Source: a virus (taxonomy: Duplodnaviria > Heunggongvirae > Uroviricota > Caudoviricetes). Taken from it: a stretch of DNA of 10,060 nucleotides. The stretch lies in IMG/VR virus record IMGVR_UViG_2695420540_000013. The stretch is one strand, 5' to 3'. Each line of letters starts with the position of its first letter. The stretch's first letter is position 1. The notes below the pieces were generated by a model. The model ran no database searches, was not told the DNA's origin, and was given only the letters and a program-made list of their open reading frames with translations. Both the position numbers and the translations under genes were made by a program. Of the stretch, positions 231-4,693 are shown one piece after another.

Positions 231-570
231 AGATCAACACGCTTTAATCGTTATCATTTTCCGGCTATCAGTCATGAAACCAGTTATCGGCATCAGGCCC
301 ACCAGCGTGAAGCGTTTTTCATTTTTCGCGGGTATAAAAAATCGATGGGGCTGGCAGTCCGGAAGACGTCAGGGTACAGAGATTTGACCCGCCCCTCCCT
401 GTGCATGCGCACAATAAGTAACCGAAGGCGGAATTCCGCCCTCGGTACTCACATATGAGAAACGATATTTCTTCCACCGATACCCTTTATTTGGGTATCG
501 CGAGTAAGCCCCAAAATCTGGGTGTTACTCTTACTACCCAAACTACGGGTAGTTTCCGTAGTTTCATAGT

Positions 571-592
571 CGAGTTGCAGATCTGCAACTCG
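571..592. repeat. Perfect 22-bp palindrome CGAGTTGCAGATCTGCAACTCG
   Basis: Self-complementary over the full 22 bp, centred on AGATCT. Lies in non-coding DNA downstream of the 640..921 gene, next to GGGTAGTTT / CCGTAGTTT direct repeats (547..564) and an 8-bp-stem hairpin (478..500). Confidence 0.7.
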
Positions 593-639
593 CCACCAGT
601 TGCTAAGTGCATTTTTGCACTTTCGGTAATATCAACCAG

Positions 640-921
640 TTACCGCCGTAAGTGCTCCGGCTTCCTCCACTGGTAAGTATTTTTCGCGCTCTCCCTCCGT
701 TGTTGAGAACGGCGACGGTATGCCAGCAACTCAAGAACTCTGGTTCGTATGTTGCGCATATCCACGCCGTTAAGCTCAATACCGTCACGGCGCATTACCT
801 CATCCACCACACGCGCATAATTTTCAGCGGTCACGCTGTCCGGTTGCATGGCCTGTTCGTCAACCTGCTGGCTGATTCCGGCGACGCGGCGGATTAATCC
901 CAGTATTTCGGCTTCTGTCAT
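640..921 (-). CDS. Hypothetical phage-associated protein, 93 aa; function unknown (position downstream of capsid gene suggests a head-completion or packaging accessory role)
   Basis: ATG at 919..921 preceded by a GGGGG Shine-Dalgarno-like run about 4 nt upstream on the minus strand. Basic C-terminal tail. No family recognised. Confidence 0.5.
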   Translation of the reverse strand: MTEAEILGLIRRVAGISQQVDEQAMQPDSVTAENYARVVDEVMRRDGIELNGVDMRNIRTRVLELLAYRRRSQQRRESAKNTYQWRKPEHLRR

Positions 922-1149
922 TGTGCCCCCATCGCGCTGGTTAAGAAAACAAGCTCAGATTTTTTGTAAAGAATCTGTCACGCTAAAAGATGTCGAACAA
1001 AAATTAACCACAATCATCATCTTTTTTGCATCAACCACATTAAAAACAACAGGTTACACACATGATGATGATGACGATAAAACCACAAAAATGCGTTTTT
1101 TTCCGCGCCGACCCGCCCCGTGGACAGGCCCCCCCCACCAGGAGGACCC

Positions 1150-1179
1150 GCAAAAAAGGCGGCTGCTGCCGCCTTGTTC
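1150..1179 (-). terminator. Rho-independent terminator immediately after the protease-capsid gene stop
   Basis: Perfect 8-bp stem AAGGCGGC / GCCGCCTT (1156..1163 and 1168..1175) with a 4-nt loop; on the minus strand it is followed by a T6 run (complement of A1152..A1157). Sits 1 to 25 nt past the stop codon at 1180..1182. Confidence 0.6.
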
Positions 1180-3060
1180 TCATGAAGAAATCGCTCTGAC
1201 CATTCCGCGATAATCCAGAGCAGCAACGCCAGCATCAATGCGGACCTTCCAGGCCACACCGTCAACAATAAAGCCCTCCTGCTGCTCAAGGTAAGGCTCG
1301 TCATTACCGTCAAGATAAGCCACCTCAATTGTGTCCGTTCCCTGTGCTGAAAGCATGTACCATTGCTTATCACTGACTTCATCAAGGCGGGGATCGACAA
1401 TAATATCCAGTTGTTTGTGGTACGGGTTATATGAACCACTGTTTGTATCGGCACCGAAAGGCGTGGTTGAGTTAACCATTTGCAACGCTCTGTCTTCCAG
1501 AGCCGCAGGAACAAGAAGGAATTTTGGCACAATATTCAGCACCTCACCGTTTTCATCCCTCTGTGTGCGCATTGCACGGCGTGCAATGCCAAGCCCTGTA
1601 GTGCTGACTCCGTTATCAATATCATTTCCGTGTTTTTTGCTGAACAGCGGTATACCGTCAGAAAGCTTTGTGTTTCCTGTCAGCACCAGATGAACCAGAT
1701 TACCCACCGTTCTGGCGGCTGCTCGCCCCATTGCCTGTGGGATAACTGTTAACTGATTCAGGTCATCGTTAATAATCGCCTGTCGGGTAATGCTGAAAAT
1801 ATTTCCGTAAGTTGCCAGCGCGATTGGTTCGCCACGGTCACTGGTGGTGATGTATTTATATTCCGCGCCTTCCGGCACTTTGTTTAATGTAGAGAAGCCA
1901 TTCAGGCCAACACGACGTGCCTCATGGAAGTTTGACAATGAACCTTTTTTCGTCCACTGGCGGAACGTTTCGCCGCTGTGTTCCCATCCGGCAAGCACGG
2001 ATTTTTCAGCACCACCAGCAAGGATATAAGTAAAATCGCTGCTGCTGTGGGTGAATGCCGCGTTTACTATCTGCGAGCGTGTGCTGTAGCTGCCTGTGCT
2101 TATGCCGCGATGGGTTAATGATGCCTGTGCCATATCGAAAAGGCTCATCATGGCGTAAGGGTTGCCGCGTTCTGCCTGTTCATGTCCCAGACGCGCATTA
2201 AGCCCCTGACGCATTGCATCGCCGGTTATGTTGCCGTTATCCGTGTACGCGTAGTAAAGATTTGCGGGGGTGGTTTTGTTTGTCGGTGTCGATTCTTTAC
2301 CCATAGTGAGTAAAAGGCGTTCGCGTGCATCCTCAACGCTACAGCCTGAATCAGCAAGACAACTTATAGCCAGGTCGTTATATCTTCCATTGAACGTGCC
2401 AAACAATTCACGTATCCCGTTGAGTCGTTCCTGTTCTCCGCTGCCAGTTTTCTGGCTGATCATGCTTTTAATATTTTCCGGCATATTCGAAAAATCTCCG
2501 ATTCGTTTTGATTCAATTCTGGCCATTGCTGTAATCGCGGGTATAACCTCATCTGCGAAGCCATTAGCCTTACACTCATTGCCATCCATCCAGGTTTCCG
2601 CCTCCATCATGGCGGTGATTTCCTGTTTGCTCCTGCCCGTTCTTCCGGCGTAGGTTTCCGCCATCGTGTCGCCCAGCTTGTCCATCAGGTCAGCAAAGCG
2701 GCGAACGTCGCCCGACACTCCGGCAGTAACACCACGGGGGGCATGTATCATCATCATCGCGTTTTCAGGCATAACGATGTGATCGCCACACATGGCAATA
2801 AACGAGGCCATAGAAGCCGCCATGCCTTCAATGTGTACAATTTTCTTTGCCGGATGATTTTTCAGGGCGTTATAGATAGCCAGCCCTTCAAAGATGTCGC
2901 CACCAGGTGAATGGATGCGAAGATGGATTTCAGGCACATTACCGCACGCGTTGATCTCGTCAGTAAGTGCCGATGCTTTTACACCGTACCCGCCGATCTC
3001 GTCATAAATGCGTACATGTACAACATCAGCCATAGCCTTAATGGAAAACCATGTTTTCAT
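1180..3060 (-). CDS. ClpP/S14-like prohead (head maturation) serine protease fused to an HK97-fold major capsid protein, 626 aa
   Basis: The N-terminal ~190 aa carry ClpP-family signatures: HSPGGDIFEGLAIYNAL (cf. ClpP INSPGG..IY), EGMAASMASF (cf. GQAASMG, catalytic Ser) and MMMIHAPRG (cf. MIHQPLGG, catalytic His). The C-terminal ~430 aa resemble phage major capsid proteins (assigned from context and general look, not from a specific motif). ATG at 3058..3060 with AGGAG 7 nt upstream; an in-frame ATG at 3031..3033 is an alternative start. Confidence 0.85.
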   Translation of the reverse strand: MKTWFSIKAMADVVHVRIYDEIGGYGVKASALTDEINACGNVPEIHLRIHSPGGDIFEGLAIYNALKNHPAKKIVHIEGMAASMASFIAMCGDHIVMPENAMMMIHAPRGVTAGVSGDVRRFADLMDKLGDTMAETYAGRTGRSKQEITAMMEAETWMDGNECKANGFADEVIPAITAMARIESKRIGDFSNMPENIKSMISQKTGSGEQERLNGIRELFGTFNGRYNDLAISCLADSGCSVEDARERLLLTMGKESTPTNKTTPANLYYAYTDNGNITGDAMRQGLNARLGHEQAERGNPYAMMSLFDMAQASLTHRGISTGSYSTRSQIVNAAFTHSSSDFTYILAGGAEKSVLAGWEHSGETFRQWTKKGSLSNFHEARRVGLNGFSTLNKVPEGAEYKYITTSDRGEPIALATYGNIFSITRQAIINDDLNQLTVIPQAMGRAAARTVGNLVHLVLTGNTKLSDGIPLFSKKHGNDIDNGVSTTGLGIARRAMRTQRDENGEVLNIVPKFLLVPAALEDRALQMVNSTTPFGADTNSGSYNPYHKQLDIIVDPRLDEVSDKQWYMLSAQGTDTIEVAYLDGNDEPYLEQQEGFIVDGVAWKVRIDAGVAALDYRGMVRAISS

Positions 3061-3354: not shown

Positions 3355-3432
3355 GTCATACCAGCAAAAGAATTGACTAATTATTGCCACGCCAGCACAA
3401 TTAAGACTCATCATTTCGGTAGTGGCAGTATC

Positions 3433-3496
3433 CTTTGTCGCTGACAAAGCGCCTCCGGTGGCACCATCGGGGCGCTTTTTTTTGCGCCTGTTTTTT
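3433..3496. terminator. Cluster of overlapping hairpins with U-tracts (terminator or attenuator-like), orientation ambiguous
   Basis: Hairpin CTTTGTC-gct-GACAAAG (3433..3449); GCGCC (3449..3453) pairs with GGCGC (3471..3475), followed by T8 (3476..3483); GGCGC (3471..3475) can alternatively pair with GCGCC (3484..3488), followed by T6 (3491..3496). Strong terminator shape on the plus strand, weaker on the minus. Directly abuts the masked block. Confidence 0.45.
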
Positions 3497-3498
3497 GT

Positions 3499-3749
3499 NN
3501 NNNNNNNNNNNNNNNNNNNNNNNNNNNNNNNNNNNNNNNNNNNNNNNNNNNNNNNNNNNNNNNNNNNNNNNNNNNNNNNNNNNNNNNNNNNNNNNNNNNN
3601 NNNNNNNNNNNNNNNNNNNNNNNNNNNNNNNNNNNNNNNNNNNNNNNNNNNNNNNCGNNNNNNNNNNNNNNNNNNNNNNNNNNNNNNNNNNNNNNNNNNN
3701 NNNNNNNNNNNNNNNNNNNNNNNNNNNNNNNNNNNNNNNNNNNNNNNNN
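3499..3749. other. N-masked / undetermined sequence block (251 nt, with an isolated CG at 3656..3657)
   Basis: Run of n characters; nothing inside can be interpreted. The six-frame ORFs crossing it (3401..3790, 3422..3880, 3435..4034) are artefacts of translating N. Confidence 0.99.
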
Positions 3750-3755
3750 CGTTGC

Positions 3756-4178
3756 TTAAAACGGTATGTTATCCCCGTACGGATCATCATTCCCCGCCTG
3801 TTGTTTGGCCCTGTTCAGTGCATCAGTGGCCTGCCCCTGTTGGCCTTTTTTACCGCCCGGTCGCGCCGTTCTGGCACTGATTACACTGTCTGCGATAACC
3901 TGCCAGCCCTGCCGCGTTTCTCCGTTCTGGCCTGTCCACTGGCTTACCTGCATGTTACCCGCCACGCTCACCAGCTCGCCTTTCTGGTGCTTTGCCAGTG
4001 CGTCAGCCTGTCTGCCAAACGCCAGGACGGATAACCATATCGTCGCCGTTCCGTCATCTGCCTGGCTGCACGGCAGGGGAACCGCCATACTCGCCATCGT
4101 CATTTGCGTACCCTTGCTGGTGGTCTTTAACTGCGGGTCAGCCACCAGCCGCCCGTAAGCCGCTATCTGTGCTGTCAT
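3756..4178 (-). CDS. ssb: Single-stranded DNA-binding protein (SSB), 140 aa
   Basis: N-terminal OB-fold-like region (AAYGRLVADPQLK ... WLSVLAFG ... GELVSVAGNMQVSQWTGQNGETRQ), a Gly/Gln-rich linker, and an acidic C-terminal tail ending DDPYGDNIPF (cf. E. coli SSB DDDIPF). Start ATG at 4176..4178 overlaps the upstream gene stop (ATGA). Confidence 0.85.
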   Translation of the reverse strand: MTAQIAAYGRLVADPQLKTTSKGTQMTMASMAVPLPCSQADDGTATIWLSVLAFGRQADALAKHQKGELVSVAGNMQVSQWTGQNGETRQGWQVIADSVISARTARPGGKKGQQGQATDALNRAKQQAGNDDPYGDNIPF

Positions 4179-4472: not shown

Positions 4473-4693
4473 TGTTCACCTTTTGCAATTTTCCCTTTTT
4501 ATTCATGATGTTAATGGGTTAACAGTTTCACAAAAACTATTCACCAACTGTTCACCACTGTTCACCCTTAAAGCTCAATAAAGAATCAAAAAGGTGAACA
4601 GTGAATAGTTTGGTGAACAGTTCATAAATAACTGTTCACCCTATAATATACTGATATAAAAGACATTTATTGCAGGGTGAACAGTGGTGAACA
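4473..4693. repeat. Iteron cluster, putative P4-type origin of replication (ori/crr-like): 8 perfect TGTTCACC/GGTGAACA octamers plus degenerate copies
   Basis: TGTTCACC at 4473, 4549, 4559, 4633; reverse complement GGTGAACA at 4593, 4612, 4676, 4686; variants TATTCACC (4538) and GTGAATAG (4601). An AT-rich stretch CTATAATATACTGATATAAAAG (4641..4662) sits inside. Located just downstream of the primase gene. TGTTCACC is the octamer I recall as the P4 alpha-protein binding iteron in ori and crr. Confidence 0.75.

Follow-up and report, generated by a model that had tools for sequence, protein, structure and literature searches.

Comparison across genomes shows that positions 472-592 of the DNA analysed here (the window, 10,060 nucleotides at full length) form a conserved, non-coding core at the att-proximal end of a packaging operon. 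Alignment further shows that this core is a head-to-tail array of four or five palindromes of ~21 bp, and that four of these are close copies of differing palindromes in the KilA-N genes of lambdoid phages. In the phages, the palindrome occupies one fixed position of a nin-region KilA-N gene (gene order RusA, KilA-N, DUF968, Q) and each allele has its own version, whereas the satellite holds several versions side by side, next to a cos copied from phages of this kind. An earlier sequence-only reading had taken the stretch for a cis-acting element linked to the helper phage, and in this it appears to have been right; its suggestion of a transcriptional control region may also apply. The array points to a route of satellite-helper recognition that would be previously undescribed.

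The window is a capsid-encoding phage satellite of E. coli that sits between clpS and cspD. It encodes an integrase, an AlpA-like regulator and a primase-helicase, contains helper-type cos, carries no tail or lysis genes and spans ~10 kb, and its predicted features place it in the class of PICIs or capsid-encoding PICI-P4 hybrids. A circular copy of the satellite, 10.79 kb long, is on record as NZ_CP148328. Positions 1-106 are host chromosome from clpS to the island junction (yljB/cspD region) and match essentially all E. coli genomes, whether or not the island is present; two annotated relatives (L003 and L004) have clpS on one side and int-yljB-cspD on the other. On the minus strand, positions 1180-3060 encode a fusion of a ClpP-like prohead protease and the major capsid protein (Pfam Phage_capsid_4, 1e-54; CLP_protease, 8e-33).

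The anatomy that the sequence-only reading had described between 380 and 600 proved accurate: an imperfect hairpin at 421-446 (an inverted repeat with 13-nt arms and one mismatch), an 8-bp-stem hairpin at 478-500 (arms 478-485 and 493-500), direct repeats at 547-564 (GTAGTTTC at 549 and 558, with an inverted copy, AAACTACGG, at 540) and a perfect 22-bp palindrome at 571-592 (CGAGTTGCAGATCTGCAACTCG). Within the core, the first unit is H2 at 478-500 (CGATACCC-TTTATTT-GGGTATCG), whose design of NNNNACCC, an AT-rich centre and GGGTNNNN is like that of the phage KilA-N palindromes; L093 and one of the L045 copies have sequence without any relation to H2 in its place. H2 is followed by H3 at 502-530, by two overlapping palindromes at 533-564, which are the GGGTAGTTT/CCGTAGTTT repeat noted earlier and of which a 9-nt copy-number variant drops one unit, and by H5, the perfect palindrome at 571-592. 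Outside the core, the GC-rich hairpin at 421-446 is terminator-like on the strand of the packaging genes (minus), with the tail TACTTATTGT; L009-type satellites have a different hairpin at this position, and L093 carries a hairpin of the 421-446 type also on the other side of the core. On that side the window has variable hairpin modules at 605-645 (605-622 and 624-645, the latter overlapping the p93 stop codon). One to four such modules lie between p93 and the core, and their stems differ by lineage with pairing kept (GTGCA/TGCAC, CGCAA/TTGCG, CCCA/TGGG, GGCG/CGCC).

The view that this stretch is non-coding also held. The overlapping plus-strand ORF at 455-676 has no ribosome-binding site, conserved ends or Pfam match; we reject it as a gene, given that its ends are not the same, or are absent, in other contexts and that the few core substitutions are mostly non-synonymous in its frame. 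Frame +2 is open in all variants, and only a variable segment of ~10-35 residues resembles KilA-N. A 26-aa minus-strand peptide, with neither conserved ends nor a ribosome-binding site, was likewise rejected. As previously noted, the stretch lies downstream of the head genes, and in fact downstream of both the head and the packaging genes, the last of which is p93 (640-921, minus strand; 93 aa, phrog_1561, function unknown). This gene is upstream of the core and on the same strand in all 79 loci with enough sequence, except L049; with L049 included, every core follows either p93 or TerS in the same orientation. Searches with p93 returned no Pfam, NCBIfam, PDB-sequence or fold match, and its AlphaFold model (three helices, pLDDT 70) likewise has no fold match; the possibilities of an Rpp-like or a DNA-binding protein were rejected on these sequence and fold searches.

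The core is strongly conserved. Across satellites it is 95-98% identical, while third codon positions of the neighbouring p93 are only 65-75% identical, and in 43 distinct variants positions 510-546 are almost entirely invariant, loops included. At least five contexts are known in which the sequences to its left and right have nothing in common. Of 5,426 complete E. coli genomes, 665 (12%) carry the core, in 755 copies that are never annotated. It sits at the att-proximal operon end in at least three satellite types, is common to satellites with DUF1441, P27-family and Nu1 small terminases, and has the same sequence in islands at three sites (clpS/cspD, tRNA-Ile and tqsA) despite their differing arm motifs; it is sometimes duplicated around an inserted cassette, and its flanks are mosaic. 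The 22-mer that the earlier reading had proposed to follow in related islands is conserved within E. coli, with 18-22 bp kept in every variant seen. A scan of species-representative genomes for divergent copies of the core found a single Shigella locus, three IMG/VR pattern scans for such copies returned the same E. coli family only, a plasmid collection contained the core only in satellite copies, and an exact-sequence search of the literature found nothing. A Klebsiella-phage homologue of p93 led to 45 related loci, none of which has the core; satellites recovered in this way have a plain terminator at its position, and since the array is absent from them it is not needed for the basic satellite life cycle.

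The core as such is absent from phages. A BLAST search of a phage collection with positions 380-640 gave no match at E<=0.01, and the similarity to KilA-N genes was seen only after this limit had been relaxed to E<=10; phage matches to 505-600 fell only inside KilA-N genes. Among 26 alleles of the KilA-N variable segment sampled, 22 have a palindrome, with arms of 6-11 bp and nearly all at the same gene position. Alleles a1, a3, a2 and a4 align successively to 510-526, 533-553, 542-562 and 571-592, with scores reached by none of 300 shuffles and none of 32 other chunks of the window, and all four matched units share codon phase with the phage genes. The inner part of H3 (510-526, CCCAAAATCTGGGTGTT) matches a1 (CAACACCCAGAATTTGGGTGTTG), with 16 of 17 bases shared with the KilA-N gene of prophage L008 at the homologous gene position. 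In the overlapping pair, 533-553 (ACTACCCAAACTACGGGTAGT) resembles a3 (ACTACCCAAAATTTGGGTAGT) and 542-562 (ACTACGGGTAGTTTCCGTAGT) resembles a2 (ACTACGGGAGATTCCCGTAGT). H5 matches a4 (CGAGTTGCAGATTTGCAACTCG, codons ELQICNS): 21 of its 22 bases match SfII, Stx2a phages, Kati and 2H10, the 20-nt stretch 573-592 is identical in Pasteurella phage Pmp14, and both 8-bp arms are intact in Yersinia phage YeP1. The arms of the satellite units are well kept, with centres that differ from the phage alleles in three of the four copies; in the a1 copy the left arm is degenerate. No H2-like allele was present in the KilA-N loci searched, a permissive pattern scan for H4 gave no KilA-N context among the matches listed (112 loci), and alleles a5, a8 and a9 are not represented in the core. 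The satellite itself encodes no KilA-N domain; its 272-aa protein (7364-8182), considered as a KilA-N relative, is unrelated.

In the phages, the palindrome is evidently under selection at the nucleotide level. Each KilA-N gene has exactly one, compared with 2 of 300 shuffled genes that have one, and phages of E. coli, Yersinia and Pasteurella have all retained it. In Pmp14, where the third-position G+C of the KilA-N gene is only 0.27, each of the six palindrome codons nevertheless has G or C as its last base. One phage allele has two units in tandem (..TQNLGVGSFNETTQNLGS..). In the PhiR40_1 genome the allele palindrome is unique, with no second copy, so that a regulator reading it would have no other operator. 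We found no description of this intragenic palindrome in the searchable literature. Phages of both cos types discussed below carry such alleles: SfII combines the cos type of 317-399 with a4, prophage L008 combines the same type with a1, and PhiR40_1 has a lambda-like cos, a DUF1441 TerS, a capsid-protease fusion and a1.

These observations suggest, with a probability that we put just short of even, that the array is a fixed 'identity panel' by which the satellite would detect or disarm whichever helper allele is present, be it through protein binding or RNA pairing. For its mode of action, we tentatively prefer a double-stranded-DNA recognition platform for a helper-derived factor that reads the palindromes, a preference that could easily prove wrong. 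The palindromes would be allele-specific sites for a dimeric, helper-encoded factor, the simplest candidate for which is the KilA-N protein of the same allele, acting within its own gene; this is a guess. Having collected several specificities, the satellite could bind the factor of whichever helper is present. Binding might sense the helper and provide a cue for late events of the satellite or, alternatively, titrate the factor away from the helper and thereby interfere with it. For the hairpins flanking the core (421-446 and 605-645), the most likely role is to stop packaging-operon transcription or to insulate it, and for the adjacent Chi sites it is to protect the DNA end that cos cleavage leaves. 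Several features argue for recognition as DNA: the allele palindromes mostly total 21-23 bp (range 14-28) with centres of 0, 1 or 6 nt, and some alleles are perfect palindromes without any loop. Against the platform count the differing centres and the degenerate a1 arm of the satellite copies, the want of an allele matching H2, the unrepresented alleles a5, a8 and a9, the related satellites that do without the array, the uniqueness of the palindrome in PhiR40_1 and its absence from HK022 roi.

An action as RNA, by mimicry or antisense pairing, is unlikely but accounts for part of the data. The core would then be the 3' untranslated end of the packaging-operon transcript (minus strand), with hairpins identical in sequence to those of the helper KilA-N mRNAs. 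Satellite RNA could then influence nin-Q expression either by pairing or kissing with the helper mRNAs of several alleles or by competing for a factor that binds RNA. Because the core sequences are palindromic, each is also complementary to its own target, which makes pairing with helper mRNA conceivable, and base pairing would be the simplest route to several specificities from an array of differing sequences. The constant orientation of the core downstream of p93 or TerS favours this reading; as regards the DNA platform, the same co-orientation fits an RNA role equally well. Both strands of 400-645 fold far better than shuffles: the plus strand at -98.2 kcal/mol against a shuffle mean of -54.6 (z = -9.9; among 200 shuffles, none folded as well), the minus strand at -105.5 against -64.3 (z = -8.4). 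The flanking hairpins fold better on the minus strand, a difference accounted for by base composition. After the core on the packaging-gene strand comes the terminator-like hairpin (446-421), the sole one to pass the terminator scan, with a weak tail; it is also the only hairpin with a U-rich tail, and no U tract follows the core palindromes on either strand. In H2, five of eight pairs change on both sides across the 43 variants (CG to TA in six, for example), and AGATCT has become AAATTT in L010-type copies. Immunity RNAs of P4 and P1 are known in genes of the Bro family (bioRxiv 10.1101/2022.07.18.500453).

Other features speak against an RNA. Rfam 15 gave no match: a search of the whole window at E<=1 found none in the region, and a permissive search of 280-700 gave chance hits only (E 2-9). 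A promoter scan of 1-1300 found no sigma-70-like site in either direction. (A sigma-54-like match can be read on the minus strand, with the right spacing in some variants only.) Covariation gives a mixed picture: it is seen in H2 and in the flanking hairpins, there is hardly any variation in H4 and H5, and wobble-compatible changes point to differing strands at different pairs. Where only one side of a pair has changed, some pairs fit the plus strand better and others the minus strand, so that neither strand is consistent throughout. The H3 helix is lost in L010-type copies, loops are as invariant as stems, and in variants with the 9-nt deletion the arms of the remaining inverted repeat are 2 nt apart (AAACTAC-NN-GTAGTTT), from which a hairpin cannot form.

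Quite doubtful is the view that the core is a relic, namely an expanded fragment of the KilA-N variable segment that was acquired by recombination, spread from satellite to satellite with the help of Chi and now serves only as hairpins that end or insulate transcription before attP and int. The four units share one reading frame, which is also that of the phage genes, and tandem units occur in one allele; Chi sites flank the core and are enriched island-wide, the flanks are mosaic with the core sometimes duplicated round a cassette, and a plain terminator suffices at the same place in the satellites recovered with the Klebsiella homologue. Against this, the core diverges by 2-5%, compared with 25-35% at third positions of p93, in at least five unrelated contexts, and to explain this one would have to assume that it was transferred recently and repeatedly, with breakpoints placed tightly round 80-120 bp. 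The core is present in 12% of complete genomes, the U-rich tail is found on the 421-446 hairpin only, and a pure terminator would not keep invariant loops.

It is very improbable that the palindromes themselves serve in packaging, as a site of recognition or cleavage (cos/pac, or cosB-like), or in site-specific recombination; a packaging site and a recombination site had both been put forward in the sequence-only reading. The palindromes do lie beside a real cos (317-399) and come after the terminase genes, and GTTTCCGT in the repeat resembles the core of the lambda R site, CGTTTCCGTTCT. But homology to phage cos stops at 399, and phage genomes end inside 317-399; the core lies 500-1000 bp from the lambda-like cosN, and in phages the palindrome is found only inside KilA-N genes. 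Satellites with small terminases of three different families have the same core, which makes a terminase-specific, cosB-like site unlikely, and the core is also present where no cos is nearby (L003, L009). Likewise, it is conserved across islands despite different integrases and att sites and is thus not an arm-type site. The arm repeats proper are at 175-197, where the attP arm has a doubled motif on the plus strand (TTAACTACACC, at 175-185 and 187-197), followed by three CGAACAA repeats at 204-230. The 29-bp segment 171-199 is seen again beside int at the opposite end of the island (L002, 136-164; L003; L004). At the equivalent position, the cf-PICI L009 has a GACTACACC doublet and the tRNA-Ile island L001 a different one, TAGGATACC; a doubled attP motif has been described for the integrase clade of this satellite (bioRxiv 10.1101/2022.07.18.500453).

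The candidate packaging sites of the window are, by homology, 317-399 and ~1085-1150, rather than the palindromes. The first, on the minus strand, is of the SfV/SfI/SfII/ST64B/phiP27 type (HNH-dependent, P27-family terminase) and is 91-95% identical to the HNH-TerS intergenic region of SfII, ST64B, SfV and SfI, and 82% to that of phiP27. The SfV and SfI records begin or end inside its equivalent, with the SfV boundary at 363|364; the annotated 10-nt cos site of phiP27 equals 347-356 of the window, and in prophage L008 a cos of this type occupies the HNH-TerS gap. Island copies carry CTGCCAGCCCC where phages have CTGCCCGCCCC. This cos overlaps the interval of the sequence-only reading by 20 bases only and contains none of the palindromes. 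The second site, also on the minus strand, is lambda-like (cosQ-like GGGTCCTCC at 1141-1149, cosN-like ACGGGGCGGGTCGGCGCGG at 1103-1121) and lies directly upstream of the p93 gene; it aligns with the Rz-TerS intergenic region of the DUF1441-TerS phages L005 and PhiR40_1, and relatives have it immediately before the gene for the satellite's own DUF1441 TerS. A third lambda-like cos falls inside an N-masked stretch of the window. The earlier remark that no lambda cos could be recognised therefore holds for 380-600 and fails for the window as a whole. The placement of cos in this satellite type matters for predicting which phages mobilise such satellites.

Three further readings of the core were rejected: attP arm-type sites (it does not co-vary with integrase or att), a Xer site, and replication-origin iterons. 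The iterons of the predicted origin, of P4 type, are GTTCACC repeats just downstream of the primase gene (4522-4635), and the core is common to satellites with other modules. Inspection by eye gave no convincing match to LexA, CRP, SlmA, MatP or IHF consensus sites, and a tRNA/tmRNA scan found none.

Gram-negative PICIs are known to carry cos sites of their helpers, such as cos1 and cos2 of EcCICFT073 (Fillol-Salom 2018, PMC6092414; 2019, PMC6739421). Like EcCICFT073, the satellite studied here has short, cis-acting sequences copied from helpers, sometimes several and of different kinds; in this window they comprise one SfV/P27-type and two lambda-like cos copies (one N-masked), beside the array. 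Unlike those cos copies, the array has its models in a helper early gene (KilA-N, nin region) rather than at genome ends and keeps several alleles side by side, and p93 is not an Rpp by sequence or fold. Promoters of satellite P4 are bound by P2 Cox and Ogr, so that a helper protein acts on satellite sites and the satellite senses its helper. In contrast, there is no evident promoter at the array, which consists of copies of intragenic helper palindromes with several specificities. Clerget and Boccard reportedly found in 1996 that HK022 Roi, a relative of P1 KilA/Ant1, binds a site in its own gene next to an IHF site. Roi would thus be a similar case of a nin-region protein of the Bro network with a cis-site within its own coding sequence; it has a different N-terminal domain, the HK022 roi gene has no comparable palindrome, and we know of no satellite copy of the Roi site.

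Immunity RNAs located in Bro-family genes (P4 CI/seqA, P1/P7 C4 and IsrK; bioRxiv 10.1101/2022.07.18.500453) share with the array the principle of nucleic-acid signals for phage-satellite control hidden in Bro/KilA-family coding sequence. The array differs from them in having no Rfam C4 or isrK match, in lying at the far end of the late zone rather than in the Bro zone, and in its palindromic units. It also recalls CRISPR arrays, in storing in tandem a set of short sequences taken from several variants of an invader or partner, but it has no separating repeats or cas genes, its units are palindromic, and it is fixed and near-identical between elements rather than acquisitive.

Recognition of helpers by Gram-negative PICI-type satellites is only partly known, and according to the paper that reported these PICIs their activator 'remains to be identified' (PMC6092414). 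The array offers a concrete and testable handle on this question: an element of 80-120 bp in about one-eighth of complete E. coli genomes, in which each matched unit points to one allele of a helper gene. For the phages, it draws attention to a single, nucleotide-selected and allele-specific palindrome in the KilA-N gene upstream of Q. If our reading is correct, these intragenic palindromes would represent an unrecognised, diversifying regulatory site, possibly driven by conflict between satellites and helpers.

Chi sites are enriched over the entire island and also flank the core. A perfect Chi (GCTGGTGG, minus strand) lies directly right of the 22-bp palindrome in 30 of 65 unique contexts; in the window, this place is taken by a Chi-like octamer matching at seven of eight positions (ACTGGTGG, 593-600, minus strand). 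Just outside the cos at 317-399, the window has a Chi site GCTGGTGG at 299-306 (minus strand), found at that position in 21 of the 65 contexts.

The DNA is a ~10-kb phage satellite that sits between clpS and yljB/cspD; bases 1-106 are ordinary chromosome. Its genes, all on the minus strand, encode an integrase, an AlpA-like regulator, an Icd-like protein, a DUF4222 protein, a D5-type primase-helicase, an SSB, a ClpP-protease/major-capsid fusion and p93, a 93-aa protein (640-921). Between p93 and the attachment site lies a 530-bp non-coding interval containing the palindromes. The sequence-only reading had described 380-600 as non-coding, which is borne out: ORF 455-676 lacks a ribosome-binding site and a Pfam match, and its ends shift or vanish in other contexts. 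The inverted repeat with 13-nt arms (421-446), the 8-bp-stem hairpin (478-500) and the perfect 22-bp palindrome (571-592) reported there are likewise present. Folded as a single strand, 400-645 forms an unbroken row of hairpins, more stable than any of 200 shuffles (z = -9.9 for the plus and -8.4 for the minus strand). The 421-446 hairpin is the sole element passing the terminator scan (minus strand, weak tail) and is swapped for a different hairpin at the same place in other lineages; hairpins at 605-645 vary in sequence with pairing kept.

Conservation is concentrated in a core at 472-592. Among ~90 loci recovered by IMG/VR pattern scans and BLAST of complete E. coli genomes, this core is nearly unchanged in 43 distinct sequence variants, and 510-546 is almost entirely invariant, including its loops. 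It is flanked on the left by at least five unrelated sequence types and on the right by one to four variable hairpin modules, and its identity is 95-98% where third codon positions of p93 are only 65-75% identical. The core is found in 665 of 5,426 complete genomes (755 copies, none annotated) and resides in three kinds of satellite: those of the window's type, capsid-forming PICIs that encode HNH, TerS and TerL themselves, and satellites whose capsid genes are lambda-type E/D and whose TerS is Nu1-type. In each kind it lies downstream of the last packaging gene in the same orientation. Phage and plasmid collections contained no core except in satellite copies, and it was missing from 45 related loci retrieved by means of a short p93 homologue from a Klebsiella phage record, in which the interval from the p93 homologue gene to att holds just arm repeats and a plain terminator.

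Once the BLAST threshold was relaxed, the 22-bp palindrome was found to recur inside KilA-N domain genes. In SfII, Stx2a phages, Kati and 2H10 it reads CGAGTTGCAGATTTGCAACTCG and encodes ELQICNS; in Yersinia phage YeP1 the two 8-bp arms are fully preserved, and Pasteurella phage Pmp14 carries a 20-nt stretch identical to 573-592. Third-position G+C of the Pmp14 gene is 0.27, yet each of the six codons in the palindrome has G or C as its last base. A prophage with an SfV-type cos (L008) has a different palindrome, CAACACCCAGAATTTGGGTGTTG, at the same position of its KilA-N gene, matching core 510-526 at 16 of 17 bases. A degenerate-codon pattern was used to sample 120 loci whose product contains the conserved motif TYVCKELVYAYAMW (L426-L545). 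Among their 26 different variable segments, 22 hold a palindrome whose arms span 6-11 bp, almost always at one gene position. Each KilA-N gene has exactly one such palindrome, compared to any at all in only 2 of 300 shuffled genes. Many palindrome centres contain AGAT or GAT. We found no published description of an allele-specific palindrome within lambdoid KilA-N genes.

Alleles a1, a3, a2 and a4 of this phage nin-region gene align to successive, partly overlapping core positions (510-526, 533-553, 542-562 and 571-592, respectively), with scores reached by none of 300 region shuffles and none of 32 other window chunks. The units resembling a1-a4 keep the codon phase of the phage genes, in the sole frame open in every variant. 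A fifth palindrome, at 478-500, is built to the same plan (NNNNACCC / AT-rich / GGGTNNNN) and matched none of the sampled KilA-N alleles. Given that a3 and a2 align to overlapping units, the GGGTAGTTT/CCGTAGTTT direct repeat, present as originally noted, is in fact the overlap of an a3-like and an a2-like unit; the repeat GTAGTTTC occurs at 549 and 558, with an inverted copy, AAACTACGG, at 540. The rest of a KilA-N gene was not found in the satellite. The represented alleles occur in phages of both cos types: SfII combines an SfV-type cos with a4, L008 has a1, and PhiR40_1 carries a1 (palindrome at 11725-11747; gene order RusA, KilA-N, DUF968, Q) together with a lambda-like cos, a DUF1441 TerS and a capsid-protease fusion. 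The analysis demonstrates both the correspondence between core and alleles and the strength of selection on the two partners.

We favor a model, derived from sequence comparison, in which a helper factor, dimeric and allele-specific, would recognize the core as double-stranded DNA. Four features argue for this reading: the total length of the phage palindromes is nearly constant (21-23 bp for most alleles) with centres of 0, 1 and 6 nt alike, some being perfect and loop-free; satellite variants with a 9-nt deletion retain AAACTAC-NN-GTAGTTT, which is unable to fold as a hairpin; core loops are as invariant as stems; and one-sided pair changes would allow wobble pairing on the plus strand in some pairs but on the minus strand in others, pointing to no single strand. 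The simplest candidate factor would be the KilA-N protein itself, and a satellite that carries several sites could use them to sense, or to titrate, the factor of any helper that is present. HK022 Roi, a P1 KilA/Ant1 relative, reportedly binds a site inside its own gene. Counting against the model, no comparable palindrome was found in the HK022 roi gene, the PhiR40_1 genome contains the phage palindrome only once, three satellite units depart from the phage alleles in their centres, and the array is missing from the related satellites recovered via the Klebsiella homologue.

One rival places recognition at the RNA level: the core would be the 3'-terminal part of the packaging transcript, where it would mimic, or pair with, helper mRNA hairpins. 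The fixed orientation downstream of the operon, the terminator-like hairpin on the packaging-operon strand (446-421) and compensatory changes in 478-500 support such a role. Alternatively, the core might be a relic, that is an in-frame, expanded fragment of the KilA-N variable segment spread by Chi-stimulated exchange. The frame agreement with the phage genes and one phage allele that already has two tandem units are consistent with this origin, which however poorly fits a core divergence of 2-5% beside a gene with 25-35% third-position differences, in five unrelated contexts. The distribution of the core rules out a terminase-specific site (three terminase families have the same core), integrase arm sites (att sites and arm motifs differ, the core is constant) and origin iterons (located at 4522-4635 instead).

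The proposal that the palindromes form a packaging site did not hold either, as none belongs to either cos of the element and 380-600 overlaps the nearer one, 317-399, by 20 bases only. Homology to lambda-like and to SfV/P27-type cos indicates that two different packaging systems of helpers are each represented by cos sites in the satellite. The lambda-like cos (~1085-1150, minus strand, reading GGGTCCTCC...ACGGGGCGGGTCGGCGCGG) aligns with the Rz-TerS intergenic region of vB_EcoS-606R10 and PhiR40_1, which have a DUF1441 terminase and a capsid-protease fusion of the satellite's kind; we take it to be similar to lambda cosQ-cosN (GGGTCC...ACGGGGCGGCGACCTCGCGG). In close relatives, a DUF1441 small terminase gene lies between the capsid gene and p93, with this cos directly upstream of it. 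The window's island lacks this gene, which most close relatives have between cos and p93 (921-1180 versus 11625-12110 in locus L001), and its cos is ~185 bp upstream of p93. A second lambda-like cos falls in the N-masked part (~3499-3749); the identical contig L038, which is not masked, shows it at 3600-3665, upstream of the capsid operon. A '129-aa ORF' at 3401-3790 is an artefact of masking 3499-3749 with N. Segment 317-399 is found alone in well over a thousand E. coli genomes, and in a prophage it exactly fills the gap from an HNH endonuclease gene to a P27-family TerS gene. It is 91-95% identical to its counterpart in SfII, ST64B, SfV and SfI and 82% to the phiP27 one; database records of SfV and SfI start or stop inside the equivalent segment, and the annotated 10-nt cos-site of phiP27 falls within it. 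All satellite copies have CTGCCAGCCCC at 347-357, where phages have CTGCCCGCCCC, a satellite-specific substitution within the region that phiP27 annotates as a 10-nt cohesive end.

Helper regulator sites exist on P4. Satellites are also known to copy helper cis-sites, such as the helper cos sites in PICIs (PMC6092414, PMC6739421), and the array belongs with these helper-mimicking elements. Signals hidden within Bro-family genes are known from P4 CI/seqA and P1 C4 (bioRxiv 10.1101/2022.07.18.500453). Our literature search found no description of a satellite array collecting several KilA-N palindromes, and there is a substantial chance that it constitutes a new type of recognition system.

Chi (GCTGGTGG) occurs nine times in the window (0.31 expected from shuffles), six on the minus and three on the plus strand, at 299 (299-306, minus), 2012, 4116, 4142, 5022, 5705, 8088, 9169 and 9941. 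No gam-like gene was seen in the window, and this abundance may shield the satellite's DNA from RecBCD when it is concatemeric or cos-cut. A Chi-like octamer lies at 593-600, where 30 of 65 contexts have a perfect Chi. The 299-306 and 593-600 sites are so oriented that RecBCD entering at a free end from cleavage in 317-399 and moving into the island would meet the one at 593-600.

p93 is the last packaging-module gene in three satellite types and essentially absent from phages. Its product has a very basic C-terminus and gave no family or fold match, and the version in satellites recovered via the Klebsiella-phage homologue has 63 aa. A few elements (L028, 1060-1380; L020, L065, L045) carry two core copies ~435 bp apart, and the intervening cassette (GCGGGTTA x3, an AT-rich stretch, TAACCCGCAA x3; iterons) looks like an origin. 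GTTCACC repeats cluster in both orientations at 4522-4635, directly downstream of the primase gene; we take them to resemble P4 type-I iterons, and the cluster is therefore probably the origin of replication. An Rfam microRNA match there is false. A doubled motif, TTAACTACACC (175-230), followed by three CGAACAA repeats at 10-bp spacing, recurs beside int at the opposite island end, and these repeats probably serve as arm-type sites, either for integrase or for an excision factor. One complete satellite of this type (NZ_CP148328.1, 10,790 bp) was deposited as a circular 'plasmid', and the chromosome record of its strain stops at the island junction; the circle reflects either excision as an episome or an effect of assembly. 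Finally, a small palindrome between cos and the 421-446 hairpin, CTGTGCATGCGCACAA (400-413), is loosely LexA-box-like (CTGT-N8-ACAA) and differs in its centre among copies.
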